Positions 2,883-31,300 of a stretch of DNA of 64,000 bases are shown here, piece by piece (positions within the stretch are counted from its first letter, which is position 1; every line of letters begins with the position of its first letter). The stretch lies in the sequence record PP047754. One strand, 5' to 3'. A program made the position numbers and the translations under genes. A model generated the notes under the pieces. That model did not search any database. It saw nothing but the letters and a program-made list of their open reading frames with translations, and was not told where the DNA came from. Source of the DNA: Escherichia phage KEP4.

Positions 2883-3704
2883 TTACACCACAGCCATTTC
2901 ACAACGAGTAGACGTGACAGAATGGCCATCTGCATCAGAAACAACACACCAATATTCGCCTTCATTTGCGGCTTCAACTGCTGTGATAACCAGGTTAGCA
3001 GTGGCGGCGGTGGCATTAGTGCCAGCATCGATAACTGACCCCGCACCCCCAGGAGTATCAGAGAAATGCCACACATAAGTGTATGGAGTTGTACCACCCG
3101 CAGCAACAACACTAAAGGTTCCGTCTTGTCCAGAAGTTACGTCTTTGGTGGCAGGTAAATCAGTCGACAGCGACAGAGCGCCTGCAACTGTAATAACCGT
3201 AGAATCTGTGTGATTCCCTTCAACCGTGACACCATAAACCGTTACAGTTCCTGAAGCCAGCAATTTGAATTTACCACCACCGACATGTACAGCTTTCGTA
3301 ATATCACCAGAATACCAATTAACGCCTTGATATGTGGCATTGGCAGGGGATACCGTCGCTAGCAATTCAACAAATTGTCCGATCTCTCCGCTGGCTGTAG
3401 CTGGAGTAATCACAAGTCCGGTGGTTAAAATGGCATTCGGATCGTGGATTTCATAAGATACTTGAAAGCCGATAGGCTTGGTGGGATCCACTTTGGTGAC
3501 ACCGTCCGCTTGTAAATTGCTCTTGGTGAGCAGAGCGTCAAGACCTTTACATTCGGTCAGGATCTCATCAGGATCTTGGTTGAGGCTGGTCTTTTGCCAA
3601 CCCTTTGCAACACCCGTCACGACATGATTGCGTTCGGTTTCCGGTTTGTTGCGGACAACTTCCGGCGCGACTAATACTGTGATTGTTGGCATGGTTTCCT
3701 CCAC
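2883..3704 (-). CDS. Ig-like (bacterial Ig/BIG-type) domain-containing protein
   Basis: 273-aa ORF rich in Thr/Val/Gly beta-strand repeats; C-terminal ANEGEYWCVVSDADGHSVTS resembles an Ig-fold strand pattern. Confidence 0.55.
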   Translation of the reverse strand: MEETMPTITVLVAPEVVRNKPETERNHVVTGVAKGWQKTSLNQDPDEILTECKGLDALLTKSNLQADGVTKVDPTKPIGFQVSYEIHDPNAILTTGLVITPATASGEIGQFVELLATVSPANATYQGVNWYSGDITKAVHVGGGKFKLLASGTVTVYGVTVEGNHTDSTVITVAGALSLSTDLPATKDVTSGQDGTFSVVAAGGTTPYTYVWHFSDTPGGAGSVIDAGTNATAATANLVITAVEAANEGEYWCVVSDADGHSVTSTRCEMAVV

Positions 3705-28034: not shown

Positions 28035-28060
28035 GAAGCCCGATCTTCCTGATCGGGCTA
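28035..28060 (-). terminator. rho-independent terminator (minus strand) at the exit of the tRNA island
   Basis: AGCCCGATC-aggaa-GATCGGGCT hairpin followed on the minus strand by TCTTTTTGTC. Confidence 0.5.
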
Positions 28061-28119: not shown

Positions 28120-28150
28120 TGGGAGAGTGCGTCGGGAATCGAACCCGAAA
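28120..28150 (-). ncRNA. tRNA-like 3-prime fragment (T-arm plus acceptor strand); 5-prime half not found
   Basis: Reverse complement reads TCGGG-TTCGATT-CCCGA-CGCACTC-T-CCCA, a perfect T-arm, but no complementary acceptor strand or anticodon stem was found nearby. Confidence 0.25.
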
Positions 28151-28283
28151 TCGTCAGGACGTTGAAAGCTATTTGCATTTCACTTGCATATCCTGCGACT
28201 TTCTTAACTTCCTTAACCCCAGATTGTTATGAAGTCGGCATGCACACCTTCTTCATCTTCAGGAAGTCACACTCATTATTCTG

Positions 28284-28370
28284 ATTGCTTCAACTGGATT
28301 CGAACCAGTGACCTCAGGCACCTTGTTCTCTCGAAACTTTCCTGCGCTCTACCACTCGAGCTATGAAGCA
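28284..28370 (-). pseudogene. tRNA-like element without an anticodon stem (probable pseudo-tRNA)
   Basis: Reverse complement has a 7-bp acceptor stem (TGCTTCA/TGAAGCA), canonical D-arm GCTC-GAGTGGTA-GAGC and T-arm ACTGG-TTCGAAT-CCAGT, but a sliding 5-bp/7-nt/5-bp scan of the 35-nt middle segment finds no anticodon stem. Confidence 0.35.
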
Positions 28371-28373
28371 ATT

Positions 28374-28462
28374 TGGCGGAAGGTGAAGGATTCGAACCTT
28401 CGGGGGCTAAAAGCCCCACTCGATTAGCAGTCGAGTCCCTTAAACCTCTCGGGCAACCTTCC
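28374..28462 (-). tRNA. tRNA-Ser (anticodon GCT), type II with long variable arm, CCA encoded
   Basis: Reverse complement folds as GGAAGGT/ACCTTCC acceptor, anticodon stem CTCGA/TCGAG with loop CTGCTAA, variable arm GGGGCTTTTAGCCCCC, T-arm GAAGG-TTCGAAT-CCTTC, discriminator G plus CCA. Confidence 0.8.
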
Positions 28463-29002
28463 AATTTGGAGCGGGAGAGCAGTCAGCTACTGGCCAACCC
28501 CTATGGCTCCCGCGAAATTAGGACGGGCTTCACACCCGATTGTGCATTTGATCTGCCGTAGCCCAACTCCCCGCGCTTATCAGCGCCGATTGGTTAACTG
28601 GCACCAGTGCCTTCTGGTTCGATCTCCTGGAACTTTACAGGCTTCGTGCCCGACCATTTCTGGAAGTTGGGGCATCGTTTCCGATGTGGAGTCACCCCAT
28701 TTTATACACAGCTGGCTGCAACGCTTACTGTGTTTGGTCTACCACCACGTGCTGGGCCACGCTTGAGGACATCGGCCATCCTTCCTCAGCTAATCCACGC
28801 GGTGGTAGATTTTGTATCAGAGTGTCCGGTGTAGCTTTCCGTGAGGTGCGCACTACTGTAGCCTCTACACTCTGAATTTGGTGGGCGTTACTTTCGTCGG
28901 GTTCGGATTCCGTTCGGCTATTGGACGTCGCTCGAGAGAACTTGTCGTTCGCGTACTTCGTGCTTACTTGCTTTCGTTTCACACCCATTGTTTGTCGTCG
29001 GG

Positions 29003-29023
29003 CGGGGGATTCAAACCCCAATC
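29003..29023 (-). ncRNA. tRNA-like T-arm fragment
   Basis: GGGG-TTTGAAT-CCCC motif in reverse complement followed by an acceptor-like strand; no matching 5-prime half. Confidence 0.2.
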
Positions 29024-29130
29024 TTTAGTTTGTGTTTCTTCAAAGCTATCATATGTTCACTTTGAATACTAGACTCCCCTGGACATCAAAACAGAATCTC
29101 TATTCCATCCTGCAAGACCCGACATAATCC

Positions 29131-29206: not shown

Positions 29207-29619
29207 ATTTATTCTTACTTTCGTAAACATTCTTTATTTTGCATGAAGACCCAGGGCAGGATCATAACGATCGTAAGTTTTTGGATGAGACCCGTTCTTG
29301 ATGCTCACCATCCGACCTTCCCAACTAGCGCGAATTCTGTTGGAAATCACCACCCAAATATTCTTCATAATATAGAACCCTTCAACTATGTTTATTCGCT
29401 TCGATCGCCCTTAATTGGGCGTCCGCGTCAGCTTTGGTGTCATGTGTCCCAAGAACTTTAGTCTTGGTGTGGTCAAGGACAACCCACTTATCGCCTCGCT
29501 TTTCAACAAACTCAACAATCTCTTTGTTGTCAGTAGCGAGGCCATCCCACTCAGTAAGAAACTCACCGAACGTTTTCATCATACTCACCAATTGTTTATT
29601 GAACAACTGGTTTATTTAG

Positions 29620-29784: not shown

Positions 29785-30016
29785 TCCCTTAAACTATCGC
29801 CCCATAATTTATTGTGTGACCAACCAAGGTCTCTCAACCCTTTATCCCGTTTGTGCATGATCAGTTCATGCATGCCTGTTTGTGCGCCTCGCGGCAACGC
29901 GCTTCTGTGGGTCTTTGGCTTGCACCGTAGCCTCACCACAGGCGTTTATTTTTCCAGGGCTTTCCACTTGCAAGTCTTGACCATACAGGGATACGGGCTT
30001 GCAAGATCGGGTTGGA

Positions 30017-30096
30017 CACAACTTTGATGGCTCTGGTACTAAAGATCCCGCGTCACCCATAGACATGGTTTATAAAATCCAGAGCCATCAAAGTTG
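30017..30096. repeat. long inverted repeat (about 18-bp perfect stem, about 42-nt loop)
   Basis: CAACTTTGATGGCTCTGG at 30018-30035 is the exact reverse complement of CCAGAGCCATCAAAGTTG at 30078-30095. Confidence 0.55.
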
Positions 30097-30475
30097 CAAC
30101 CAAATGTTACAACTCGCATTCAATGTCTTCGTCACACCGAATACTTGTCCTCTATCGCTCGGACCAAACGAGGCTGGCCGAAGAAACAAAACACCACTCA
30201 ACACTAGAGCAAGGATGTGGTTGATGGCCACGATGTAATGTCTCTATCGAAGAGTGATCACACTTGTCAGATGATCACTGTTTTGCGAACTCGAGAATAC
30301 TGCGCCTGTCTCGGGTTTCCCCTTAGTTCGGCCTCTCATTGTTCGTCCGGTCAGGGAGCTACCCTTGATGACCAGCTTATATTGAGATCTTCGCCAGCGC
30401 CCACCAGTGTCTAGAATGTGTAGGCGTCGAGGTCTGCAAGGCATTGCCCTATTTCATACAACGCTCTCTCAAGTA

Positions 30476-30608
30476 CGCAAATCGAAGTTCTCTGGGCTTA
30501 ACAGGTTCGACCCAACATGTTGTATATCGCCTAACTTACTCATGGGACGGCCACTTCTGTGTACAGACCTTGAGGGTTAAAAGATATACCCAGAGAACTT
30601 CGATTTGC
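30476..30608. repeat. long inverted repeat (20-bp perfect stem, about 93-nt loop)
   Basis: CGCAAATCGAAGTTCTCTGG (30476-30495) and CCAGAGAACTTCGATTTGCG (30589-30608) are exact reverse complements; a second hairpin TGTGGGGG-CAAA-CCCCCCACA follows at 30610-30630. Confidence 0.55.
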
Positions 30609-30894
30609 GTTGTGGGGGCAAACCCCCCACACGGCTACTTCTTTAACAGGGATTGCTAGCCCTGGGGATTCCACTGTTTAAGGCTTTATCCCATAACGCC
30701 CGAGGCGCGTTTTAACTTATTGAAGCTTGCATAACTGCAAACTGATGCGCTGTGAGACACATCTTTGAGGGCACTCAGTGTACAACAGGCTCCGATATTT
30801 CATAGGGCATTACTGCCTCGGATTTAAGTTGCCTTTCTCCTGAAACTCCATACAGTCTCGCGTCTGACGCGGAATGCCCTCAAAGATATGGAGC

Positions 30895-30925
30895 CGTTTT
30901 AGGGAGTCGAACCCAAATGCTTGGC
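30895..30925 (-). ncRNA. tRNA-like T-arm fragment
   Basis: GGG-TTCGACT-CCC in reverse complement; no acceptor complement found. Confidence 0.2.
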
Positions 30926-31016: not shown

Positions 31017-31045
31017 TGGGATTGGAGGAAGGACTCGAACCTTCT
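31017..31045 (-). ncRNA. tRNA-like 3-prime fragment with encoded CCA
   Basis: Reverse complement GAAGG-TTCGAGT-CCTTC-CTCCAAT-C-CCA; no 5-prime acceptor strand (ATTGGAG) nearby. Confidence 0.25.
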
Positions 31046-31300
31046 CATGTACGCTCCTGATTTCTCAGAAGTAGTCTGCTCCCATCGACCTATTAAGTAC
31101 ACGCTCCGCTCATTGTCGACGGGAGATTATTAATCACACCCTCCCGTCTATTTTAGTGCGCCGAATTTGGTGATGAGGAATCGGAAGACCTCACTGGTGT
31201 ATGGCTATTAAGCTACTGCCAGGAACGTGTTATCATTAGCGATTATTTTTGTGGTCAGTTTCTAAAAACCCGCAAAGTCACGCACAACGAAAACGAAAAC

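Follow-up and report, generated by a model that had tools for sequence, protein, structure and literature searches.

What is the role of a gene that keeps the body of a transfer RNA (tRNA) and lacks the part that reads codons? This question is raised by a locus in Escherichia phage KEP4 (sequence record PP047754), of which a stretch of 64,000 nucleotides (nt), referred to below as the window, was analysed. A first-pass annotation, made from the letters of the window without database searches, had described a tRNA-like gene with intact acceptor, D and T arms and no anticodon stem, and had proposed either a decaying pseudogene or a structured tRNA mimic. Here we describe this gene (hereafter the element) as a tRNA-Ile body in which the whole anticodon arm is replaced by a 30-nt hairpin module, M1. 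The same module was detected in phages of other families, on three different RNA scaffolds. The reading that we favour, with a probability of about one half, is that the element is a tRNA-shaped carrier RNA with M1 as its conserved effector arm, which would be excised by tRNA processing and bind a host factor.

Anatomy of the element

The element is encoded on the minus strand, which the initial description had omitted. Its span had been given as 28284-28370; position 28284 is one base beyond the discriminator, and the element itself covers 28285..28370. Read from 28370 to 28285, it is UGCUUCA-UA-GCUC-GAGUGGUA-GAGC-G-CAGGAAAGUUUCGAGAGAACAAGGUGCCUG-AGGUC-ACUGG-UUCGAAU-CCAGU-UGAAGCA-A, where CAGGAAAGUUUCGAGAGAACAAGGUGCCUG is the 30-nt arm. 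The following parts were assigned.

28285..28370, minus: whole tRNA-shaped gene, 86 nt including the discriminator A (Rfam tRNA score, minimum free energy fold as a cloverleaf)
28364..28370, minus: 5' strand of the acceptor stem, UGCUUCA, perfectly paired with 28286-28292
28286..28292, minus: 3' strand of the acceptor stem, UGAAGCA, with the discriminator A at 28285
28346..28361, minus: D arm GCUC-GAGUGGUA-GAGC, 4-base-pair (bp) stem, G18 and G19 present
28315..28344, minus: module M1, CAGG-AAA-G-U-UUC-GAGA-GAA-C-AAGGUG-CCUG, 30 nt (alignment with the tRNA-Ile of phage ECML-4, occurrence on three scaffolds)
28341..28344, minus: 5' strand of the M1 outer stem, CAGG (tRNA positions 27-30), paired with CCUG; sole change a G-C to a G.U pair
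28315..28318, minus: 3' strand of the M1 outer stem, CCUG (tRNA positions 40-43, alignment to the Rfam tRNA model)
28329..28332, minus: terminal GNRA tetraloop of M1, GAGA in this copy; four versions known, closing UUC/GAA invariant
28319..28324, minus: invariant 3' internal-loop strand of M1, AAGGUG, Shine-Dalgarno-like, unchanged in 61 copies and in 14 more from metagenomes
28310..28314, minus: variable loop AGGUC (tRNA model and ECML-4 alignment)
28293..28309, minus: T arm ACUGG-UUCGAAU-CCAGU, canonical 5-bp stem; homologues vary between G and A at one loop position

The claim of intact acceptor (7 bp), D and T arms was confirmed by the Rfam tRNA model (RF00005), which gave 48.7 bits against a gathering score of 29 bits (E = 2e-8 when 6 kb were searched, 3e-10 for the element by itself). 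In the Rfam scan only the tRNA model fitted the element, a plastid motif on the opposite strand being noise. Except for the anticodon arm, all the features of the tRNA class were found, including the acceptor stem, the D arm with G18 and G19, and the T arm with its UUCRANY loop; what is missing is an anticodon stem of 5 bp with a loop of 7 nt that contains U33 and an anticodon, and ARAGORN made no tRNA call at the element.

The arm was described at first as having no anticodon stem. This holds for a canonical arm of 5 bp and 7 nt, and no U33 in register, 7-nt anticodon loop or usable anticodon was found in it. However, alignment to the tRNA model detected a 4-bp stem, CAGG/CCUG, exactly at the anticodon-stem position (27-30/40-43), which encloses 22 nt instead of the usual 9, and in the minimum free energy fold an inner helix G(U)UUC/GAAC lies inside the enclosed stretch under the GAGA tetraloop. 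Likewise, the statement that no 5-bp stem exists anywhere in this segment was too broad, since a brute-force scan gave a 6-bp pairing, GUUUCG/UGAGGU; this pairing is weak and G.U-rich, and it is absent from the conserved pairing of the homologues.

Exchange of the anticodon arm

Over the 4 kb around the element, the sequence matches Salmonella phage kage (Ackermannviridae, Kuttervirus) at 100% identity and more than 100 relatives at 95-100%. The first-pass annotation had named an intact anticodon arm at this locus in related phages as the mark of a simple pseudogene, and such an arm was indeed found: the Kutterviruses ECML-4, STML-13-1 and Matapan have an ordinary tRNA-Ile(GAU) of 73-76 nt as the gene that follows tRNA-Ser. 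Taken to the letter, this speaks for a pseudogene, but an intact tRNA-Ile in relatives does not separate a pseudogene from a mimic.

The comparison with this tRNA-Ile is more informative in its detail. The two agree in every base of the acceptor stem, T arm and variable loop and nearly so in the D arm, where a few bases of the loop differ; the block of difference is confined to the interval from G26 to the variable loop. Within this block the 17-nt arm UUCCC-CUGAUAA-GGGAG of tRNA-Ile, with its own 5-bp stem and CUGAUAA loop, corresponds to the 30-nt M1 hairpin of the element, the exchange falling exactly at the arm boundaries and accounting for a length difference of 13 nt, all within the anticodon arm. 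By this alignment the element is a tRNA-Ile body with its anticodon arm cleanly swapped, not eroded. Decoding is impossible because the whole arm has been replaced.

About 139 of the 153 matching phage records have the M1 form of the gene. Public labels for the Kuttervirus copies are inconsistent (tRNA-OTHER, tRNA-Leu, tRNA-Pro or blank), and the GenBank record of kage has no annotation at the coordinates of the element. In Shigella phage pSb-1 (L008, 408-743), a coding sequence for a 'hypothetical protein', gp97, is annotated across the M1 tRNA-like gene. A protein-coding reading of the element was considered and set aside: the overlapping open reading frames (ORFs) are short and unsupported, and the pSb-1 coding sequence over its copy was judged spurious.

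Distribution and conservation of M1

M1 was found on three scaffolds. Scaffold (a) is the tRNA-Ile body, present in Kuttervirus, in Agtrevirus (another subfamily of the Ackermannviridae) and in the N4-like Klebsiella phage VLCpiP4b. Scaffold (b) is another true-tRNA body, with the acceptor strand GCCCACU or GUCCACU and the 3' partner AGUGGG(U/C), present in the N4-like Shigella phage pSb-1, the T5-like phage EP_H11 and metagenome contigs. Scaffold (c) is a non-tRNA cloverleaf, present in phage HK620 and in prophages, including those of 107 of the 5426 complete E. coli genomes. In E. coli HS, of which one prophage was examined closely, the M1 cloverleaf lies between antiterminator Q and holin, downstream of the late-leader terminator. 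Among the other copies on scaffolds (a) and (b), those with tRNA calls around them, in VLCpiP4b and EP_H11, are, like the element, located in tRNA clusters. A pattern scan of IMG/VR gave 52 M1 loci, mostly on prophage-like contigs of 20-47 kb with scaffold (c).

Among 61 copies of M1 we distinguished 8 variants, in which 5 of the 30 positions vary and none of which is broken. The variable positions are the middle of the ANA strand, the bulged Y, the N and the R of the GNRA loop, and one C/U (a G-C to G.U change); the tetraloop occurs as GAGA, GAAA, GGAA and GGGA. Identical variants are common to tRNA and non-tRNA scaffolds. A metagenome scan in which the outer stem was left free added 14 true copies, for a total of 75, and all 14 had CAGG...YCUG and lay on one of the three scaffolds; the other 16 matches were due to chance and had neither. 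M1 probably folds as an outer stem CAGG/YCUG, an internal loop with ANA opposite AAGGUG, an inner stem G(Y)UUC/GAAC with a one-base bulge, and the GNRA loop.

Outside phages the module was not detected. Among 185,579 genomes, one per bacterial or archaeal species, there were 8 matches, all by chance, without CAGG or a scaffold. In the E. coli genomes, searched on both strands up to E = 10, no M1-like stretch was found except the 107 prophage copies, and the core genome has no M1-like or complementary stretch of about 18 nt or more on either strand. In the collections searched, M1 is thus phage-borne, intact wherever it occurs and variable just at structurally tolerant sites.

Near one M1 cloverleaf, about 200 nt away on a prophage-like contig (L021, 4307-4368, minus), a sub-threshold match to the type III hammerhead ribozyme was observed (30.5 bits, E = 0.007), in which both cores, CUGAUGA and GAAAC, are intact.

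Carrier structures

The tRNA-type carriers are kept in a paired state. In 10 distinct tRNA-type homologues that were aligned, all 24 modelled pairs form in each. Between bodies (a) and (b), 5 of the 7 acceptor pairs change on both sides with pairing at 100% (pSb-1, EP_H11, L204 and L210), and a C2-G71 to U2-A71 change occurs within scaffold (b); shuffled sequences and slid registers came nowhere near this covariation.

Scaffold (c) has the dimensions of a tRNA. A 7-bp closing helix and an AAU linker lead to a first hairpin (4 bp, loop AGGCUGAU); the insert comes next, then a second hairpin (5 bp, loop AGAUCAGCA) and finally the closing strand. Two examples of the frame are as follows.

L064 6007-6096, E. 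coli HS prophage: GGUGAAU, GC hairpin, insert and CCGG hairpin
L299 1201-1340, Stenotrophomonas phage S72: frame with covarying kissing loops

The closing helix P1 and the D-like first stem covary. The two loops are complementary (GCUGAU:AUCAGC), and both are switched in phage S72 (UGGUGA:UCACCA), as would be expected for a kissing interaction that mimics the D-loop/T-loop elbow of tRNA. The S72 cloverleaf stands immediately 5' of six tRNA genes. The element has none of the features of this family (GGUGAAU, the GCUGA loop, the CCGG hairpin with UCAGC loop), and only the insert M1 is common to both.

When the HK620 version was used in BLAST, 143 phage records were matched, including Webervirus-like Klebsiella siphophages (about 46-48 kb), N4-like IME11, P1-like RCS47, N15-like PY54, Klebsiella Taipeivirus, and Erwinia, Hafnia and Pantoea phages. 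These matches often came in two pieces, because the middle differs. At least 120 scaffold-(c) loci were detected in each of two IMG/VR scans, and the position of M1 is taken by at least 56 unrelated inserts, 12-180 nt long, M1 being the commonest among the matches listed. M1 is thus one case of a wider phage habit of variable arms at this position. After many of the genes there is an intrinsic terminator that ends in a U tail. Rfam holds no family for scaffold (c), the only resemblance being a trivial one of 18 nt to rydB.

This resemblance lies in the second hairpin, GCCGGAGAUCAGCGCCGG (L064, 6072-6089), which is nearly identical to positions 30-47 of the model of the E. coli small RNA (sRNA) rydB; rydB might be a remnant of a phage RNA of the scaffold-(c) type. 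Among the other inserts, one type (L083 about 3360-3540, L166 about 1300-1450, L299 1201-1340) forms two hairpins with covarying stems. The loop of the first changes between GUGGCCAC and GUGAUCAC yet stays palindromic, which suggests loop-loop dimerisation, and the second loop keeps GUAAGCGG...ACGGCUA. One such insert had drawn attention as a possible 'anti-M1', because a hairpin loop in it holds CCACCUUGUUCU, which is complementary to M1 over 11 nt. This candidate was rejected: its relatives conserve the palindrome instead, S72, with a non-enteric host, has CACCUAGUU, and the complementarity was judged probably coincidental.

A proposed carrier RNA with an effector arm

The supposition that the locus encodes a structured, non-decoding, tRNA-shaped RNA gains support from the conservation of the arm across phage families and scaffolds. 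In the reading that we favour, the element would be transcribed with the tRNA operon and excised by RNase P and the 3' tRNA-processing enzymes like the neighbouring tRNAs, and would accumulate as a stable L-shaped RNA. The tRNA body would serve as the handle for processing and stability, and the M1 arm as the working part, a sequence-specific binding surface acting as a decoy or an aptamer. Its partner would be a factor conserved in Salmonella, Escherichia and Klebsiella, be it a protein or some component of the translation machinery. Two neighbouring features bear on the processing step.

28374..28462, minus: tRNA-Ser(GCU), immediately upstream of the element in the same direction (ARAGORN; Rfam 56 bits)
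28037..28059, minus: intrinsic terminator, 9-bp stem with 6 G-C pairs followed by UCUUUUUGUC, closing the cluster of tRNA and tRNA-like genes

The distance of 3 nt from tRNA-Ser noted earlier was correct; the spacer between the CCA of tRNA-Ser and the start of the element is AAU. The cut of RNase P is predicted before U1 (28370), and the 12-bp stack of acceptor and T stems is favourable for this enzyme, together with the U at N-1. The placement of the element, directly after tRNA-Ser in a cluster closed by a terminator, fits co-processing with the tRNAs.

As to the mode of action, three observations speak for a partner that recognises the arm as a whole: invariance extends to the stems as fully as to the loops, with the tetraloop passing through four versions, M1 sits on three different carriers, and there is no extended complementarity to the host. 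Expression, processing and the binding of a host factor by M1 are predicted here.

Several observations weigh against this reading. The fold of M1 cannot be confirmed by covariation, because its helices are invariant, and the near-identity of the copies may in part reflect recent horizontal spread and not long purifying selection. Some Kutterviruses keep the plain tRNA-Ile at this locus and do well. The fold stability of the element is ordinary (z = -1.5). In the kage lineage a G stands at the usual A14 position, and in the KEP4/kage sequence the discriminator is followed by UCA, CCA not being encoded, features that a gene under relaxed constraint might show; CCA is encoded in ECML-4, SW16-7 and VLCpiP4b. 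Finally, the sRNAs STnc100 and PasD, described in the next section, are reported to be Hfq-bound pairing RNAs, which favours seed pairing over a protein decoy.

Alternative explanations

The strongest of the alternatives, although an unlikely one, is a base-pairing regulatory sRNA, for which the tRNA body would be a mere carrier and M1, with its invariant GAACAAGGUG / AAGGUG strand, would be a short seed. Its target might be a host or phage RNA with a CACCUU site, or the anti-Shine-Dalgarno tail of 16S ribosomal RNA (rRNA), in the manner of STnc100 and PasD. STnc100 and the prophage sRNA PasD of enteropathogenic E. coli share a common structure with different seeds, adjoin Q and are reported to be associated with Hfq (bioRxiv 10.64898/2026.05.13.724894), having been recovered on Hfq by a method that ligates and sequences interacting RNAs (RIL-seq). 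The layout of scaffold (c) is that of Rfam STnc100 (RF02076; P1-GGUGAAU-hairpin-variable-hairpin-P1'), in the same late-region neighbourhood beside antiterminator Q, and the STnc100 model matches Klebsiella phages that also bear scaffold (c). The terminator and U tail after many scaffold-(c) genes, the Shine-Dalgarno-like AAGGUG and the hypervariable inserts, such as are expected for seeds, point in the same direction.

The M1 stems, however, are as invariant as the loops, whereas sRNAs of the seed type usually let their stems covary. The E. coli core sequence offers no complementarity of about 18 nt or more, sites like CACCUUGUUC occur in the window at chance level without excess, and the complementarity to M1 of a single insert, which a palindromic loop accounts for, is not kept in S72. 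The versions of M1 in lytic phages lack a terminator or U tail of their own. While STnc100 and PasD are by report Hfq-bound seed-pairing sRNAs, the element is a true tRNA body of a lytic phage, and the STnc100 model gave no match to the element or to the M1 cloverleaves at E up to 10, although it does match other Klebsiella phage sites.

A decoy for tRNA-targeting defence is rather improbable. It would be an uncleavable tRNA look-alike that soaks up a nuclease such as PrrC, RloC, PARIS AriB or retron/Septu PtuAB, or else an acceptor-end-modifying toxin. The full L-shape of tRNA is kept, either through canonical D and T loops or through the kissing-loop elbow, the horizontal spread resembles that of an accessory anti-defence gene, and phages are reported to carry tRNAs against such defences (bioRxiv 10.1101/2023.03.15.532788). 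Against it, the GNRA tetraloop varies freely, is unlike any anticodon loop and lacks U33. No single tRNA identity can be mimicked, because the acceptor stems differ among the scaffolds. Since the scaffold-(c) frame, itself not a tRNA, accepts at least 56 unrelated arms, the arm rather than the likeness to tRNA appears to be the specific part. The anticodon-nuclease decoy of the first-pass annotation thus finds no support.

The same is true of the decaying pseudogene, in which a recombination accident would have destroyed the anticodon arm of a now neutral tRNA-Ile. It could appeal to the intact tRNA-Ile(GAU) at the locus in ECML-4, STML-13-1 and Matapan, to the G at position 14 and the unencoded CCA of the kage copy, and to the pipelines that call the copies tRNA-OTHER, Leu, Pro or nothing. 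We reject it as highly improbable, because the supposedly defective arm is conserved across phage families and three scaffolds, with variation only at the 5 tolerant positions and not one of the 75 copies degraded. The stems of the tRNA body are all perfectly paired, and the M1 form predominates among the matching records.

An intron-containing tRNA, from which the extra 13 nt would be removed to leave a functional tRNA, can practically be dismissed. In its favour, the anticodon arm exceeds that of tRNA-Ile by exactly 13 nt, and some pipelines assigned Leu or Pro as though an intron were skipped. Against it, the tRNA introns of bacteria and phages belong to group I and measure hundreds of nt, taking out 13 nt never gives a 5-bp stem with a Y-U-NNN-R-N loop (the fifth pair would be A.G), U33 appears in no register, no group I core or intron-family match was found, and M1 occurs also in a non-tRNA frame.

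Relation to known RNAs

The carrier reading invites comparison with other small RNAs of phages. The stable RNAs C and D (species 1 and 2) of T4 come from the T4 tRNA region and are expressed, with roles still unknown (PMC3014915, PMC9697503). Like the element they are small non-decoding RNAs among phage tRNA genes; they are longer, and module sharing with other scaffolds is not known for them. Their ends are presumably tRNA-like.

RNase P matures several non-tRNA phage RNAs, including C4 of P1/P7, CI of P4 and M3 of phi80 (PMC5499578, PMC11143913). As proposed for the element, these are phage RNAs with tRNA-like features released by a host tRNA-processing enzyme. They are hairpin-like substrates without an equivalent of the T loop (PMC5499578), and antisense pairing is known for C4 and CI; the element, in contrast, has a T arm, and its Rfam scan gave no match to families of the C4/CI/M3 type.

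In the tRNA-like domain of transfer-messenger RNA (tmRNA) and in YrlA, the acceptor, T and D elements are combined with another functional helix in place of the anticodon arm. The tmRNA models did not match the element, its acceptor pairs are U1-A72, G2-C71 and C3-G70 without the G3:U70 alanine identity of tmRNA, and the tag-like frame described below lies 2.9 kb upstream and is not part of it, so that the element is not a member of tmRNA. The YrlA model (RF02553) gave 11.5 bits against a threshold of 69, a truncated match on the D arm only. The ends of YrlA lie on the anticodon side, a topology unlike that of the element.

Ponchon and Dardel are said to have engineered a tRNA scaffold that carries a cargo RNA in place of the anticodon arm. 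The design principle is the same, but theirs is a laboratory construct, and the element is a candidate natural counterpart.

Other likenesses of M1, to known motifs and compared by eye over about 5 kb of RNA, where an identity of 8-9 nt is expected by chance, were not adopted. The kink-turn, domain IV of signal recognition particle RNA, lambda/P22 boxB, the T-loop, CsrA GGA sites and Hfq ARN repeats fitted only partially or only the kage variant, as did tmRNA helix 2 (CAAGGUGC) and 16S rRNA 1499-1506 (AACAAGGU); these resemblances were within chance. A sarcin-ricin mimic is excluded because the loop drifts among GNRA versions. The literature searched, of incomplete coverage, contained no description of M1 or of the cloverleaf frame, and sequence searches returned nothing relevant. 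Small-RNA data of P22 were also considered; the abundant sRNA that they reveal between Q and holin is a different RNA from the M1 cloverleaf.

Wider implications

If the carrier reading is correct, codon supply and protection against nucleases would be joined by a third use of phage tRNA genes, as carriers of a conserved non-decoding arm. Odd phage tRNA genes usually end up under the label 'tRNA-OTHER' or are passed over. That M1 occurs in Ackermannviridae and in N4-like, T5-like and HK620-type phages suggests a shared host interaction, which could be found by pull-down. The cloverleaf family, whose arms are interchangeable, would enlarge annotation by a sizeable class of small phage RNAs, and light might be shed on the T4 tRNA cluster and its stable RNAs, long without an explanation. 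Kutterviruses serve as biocontrol and therapy phages, hence an unrecognised effector RNA in them would be worth knowing.

A broader view, which we hold to be doubtful, can be put forward only tentatively. Phages might use tRNA-shaped RNAs as a general display platform on which arms are swapped at the anticodon position, M1 being the most successful and mobile effector. The frame could be either a true tRNA body or the cloverleaf with a kissing-loop elbow, in phages of enterobacteria and of other gammaproteobacteria. M1 may conceivably have spread between lytic and temperate phages by neutralising or hijacking a conserved host component. As its target one might speculatively name the ribosome, the trans-translation machinery (in view of the nearby tmRNA-like tag templates) or a common defence sensor. 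Such a platform, if true, would represent a new class of phage RNA effectors and a natural counterpart of the laboratory tRNA scaffold.

Other features of the RNA island

The surroundings of the element, from 31.4 to 28.0 kb, form a non-coding RNA island, described here in the direction of the minus strand. Its first feature is a putative tag template.

31205-31262, minus: tmRNA-like tag template encoding ANDNTFLAVA*; the RNA probably extends from about 31380 to about 31113

The template reads ...GAAACUGACCACAAAAAUAAUC GCU AAU GAU AAC ACG UUC CUG GCA GUA GCU UAA (ANDNTFLAVA*). There is no start codon, an in-frame TAG lies upstream, and a promoter-like site was noted at 31412-31385. Rfam tmRNA matches were below threshold (20.6 and 14 bits), ARAGORN made no tmRNA call, and a search for a tRNA-like domain with G3:U70 gave nothing convincing. 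The 13 versions of the tag collected from other phages and prophages encode ANDDVVLMAA, ANDEQFLAVA, ANEEMYLAVA, ANDDLMLMAA, ANDNAFLMSA and ANEEMYLAAA; they show variation of the coding type while remaining SsrA-like. The tag element often stands 200-250 nt upstream of a scaffold-(c) cloverleaf, in a sampling that was biased.

Further along the minus strand, among 31020-31050, 30891-30915 and 30786-30793, an isolated T-arm-like piece, GAAGG-UUCGAGU-CCUUC, was noted. Another, GGG-UUCGACU-CCC, is followed by ACGGCUCCA, resembling the 3' end of tmRNA or tRNA-Ala, and a complementary GGAGCCUG occurs about 100 nt downstream. The order of the T-arm piece and GGAGCCUG is reminiscent of permuted tmRNA genes; the Rfam matches were very weak only. 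Two long, near-perfect hairpins with stems of 17-20 bp lie at 30476-30609 and 30000-30111 (arms GCAAAUCGAAGUUCUCUGGG...CCCAGAGAACUUCGAUUUGC and AACUUUGAUGGCUCUGG...CCAGAGCCAUCAAAGUU), and these matched microRNA-precursor models spuriously.

Two more tRNA genes of the cluster precede tRNA-Ser.

29695-29620, minus: tRNA-Met, member of the RNA-gene cluster (ARAGORN)
29206-29131, minus: tRNA-Asn, member of the RNA-gene cluster (ARAGORN)

Between them, at 29234-29368 (minus), the kage record has a 135-nt 'tRNA-OTHER'. The same stretch is an ORF of 44 codons beginning with ATG, annotated as a hypothetical protein in one relative, and its fold is unremarkable (z = -1.0). Just past tRNA-Asn, at 28995-29125 (minus), a tRNA-like RNA of about 130 nt was recognised, which is closed by the helix GUCGGGU/GCCCGAC and has a large middle and, in GGGG-UUUGAAU-CCCC, a likeness of a T arm; in some relatives (BPS3) a tRNA-Tyr is situated between this region and tRNA-Ser. 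Another tRNA-like RNA, of about 148 nt, lies directly downstream of the element at 28128-28275 (minus) and ends about 70 nt before the cluster terminator. It combines a helix of the acceptor type, GAGUGUG/CGCACUC, with a canonical T arm, UCGGG-UUCGAUU-CCCGA, two long arms lying between them; it folds better than its shuffles (z = -2.4), and is reminiscent of the stable RNAs C and D of T4.

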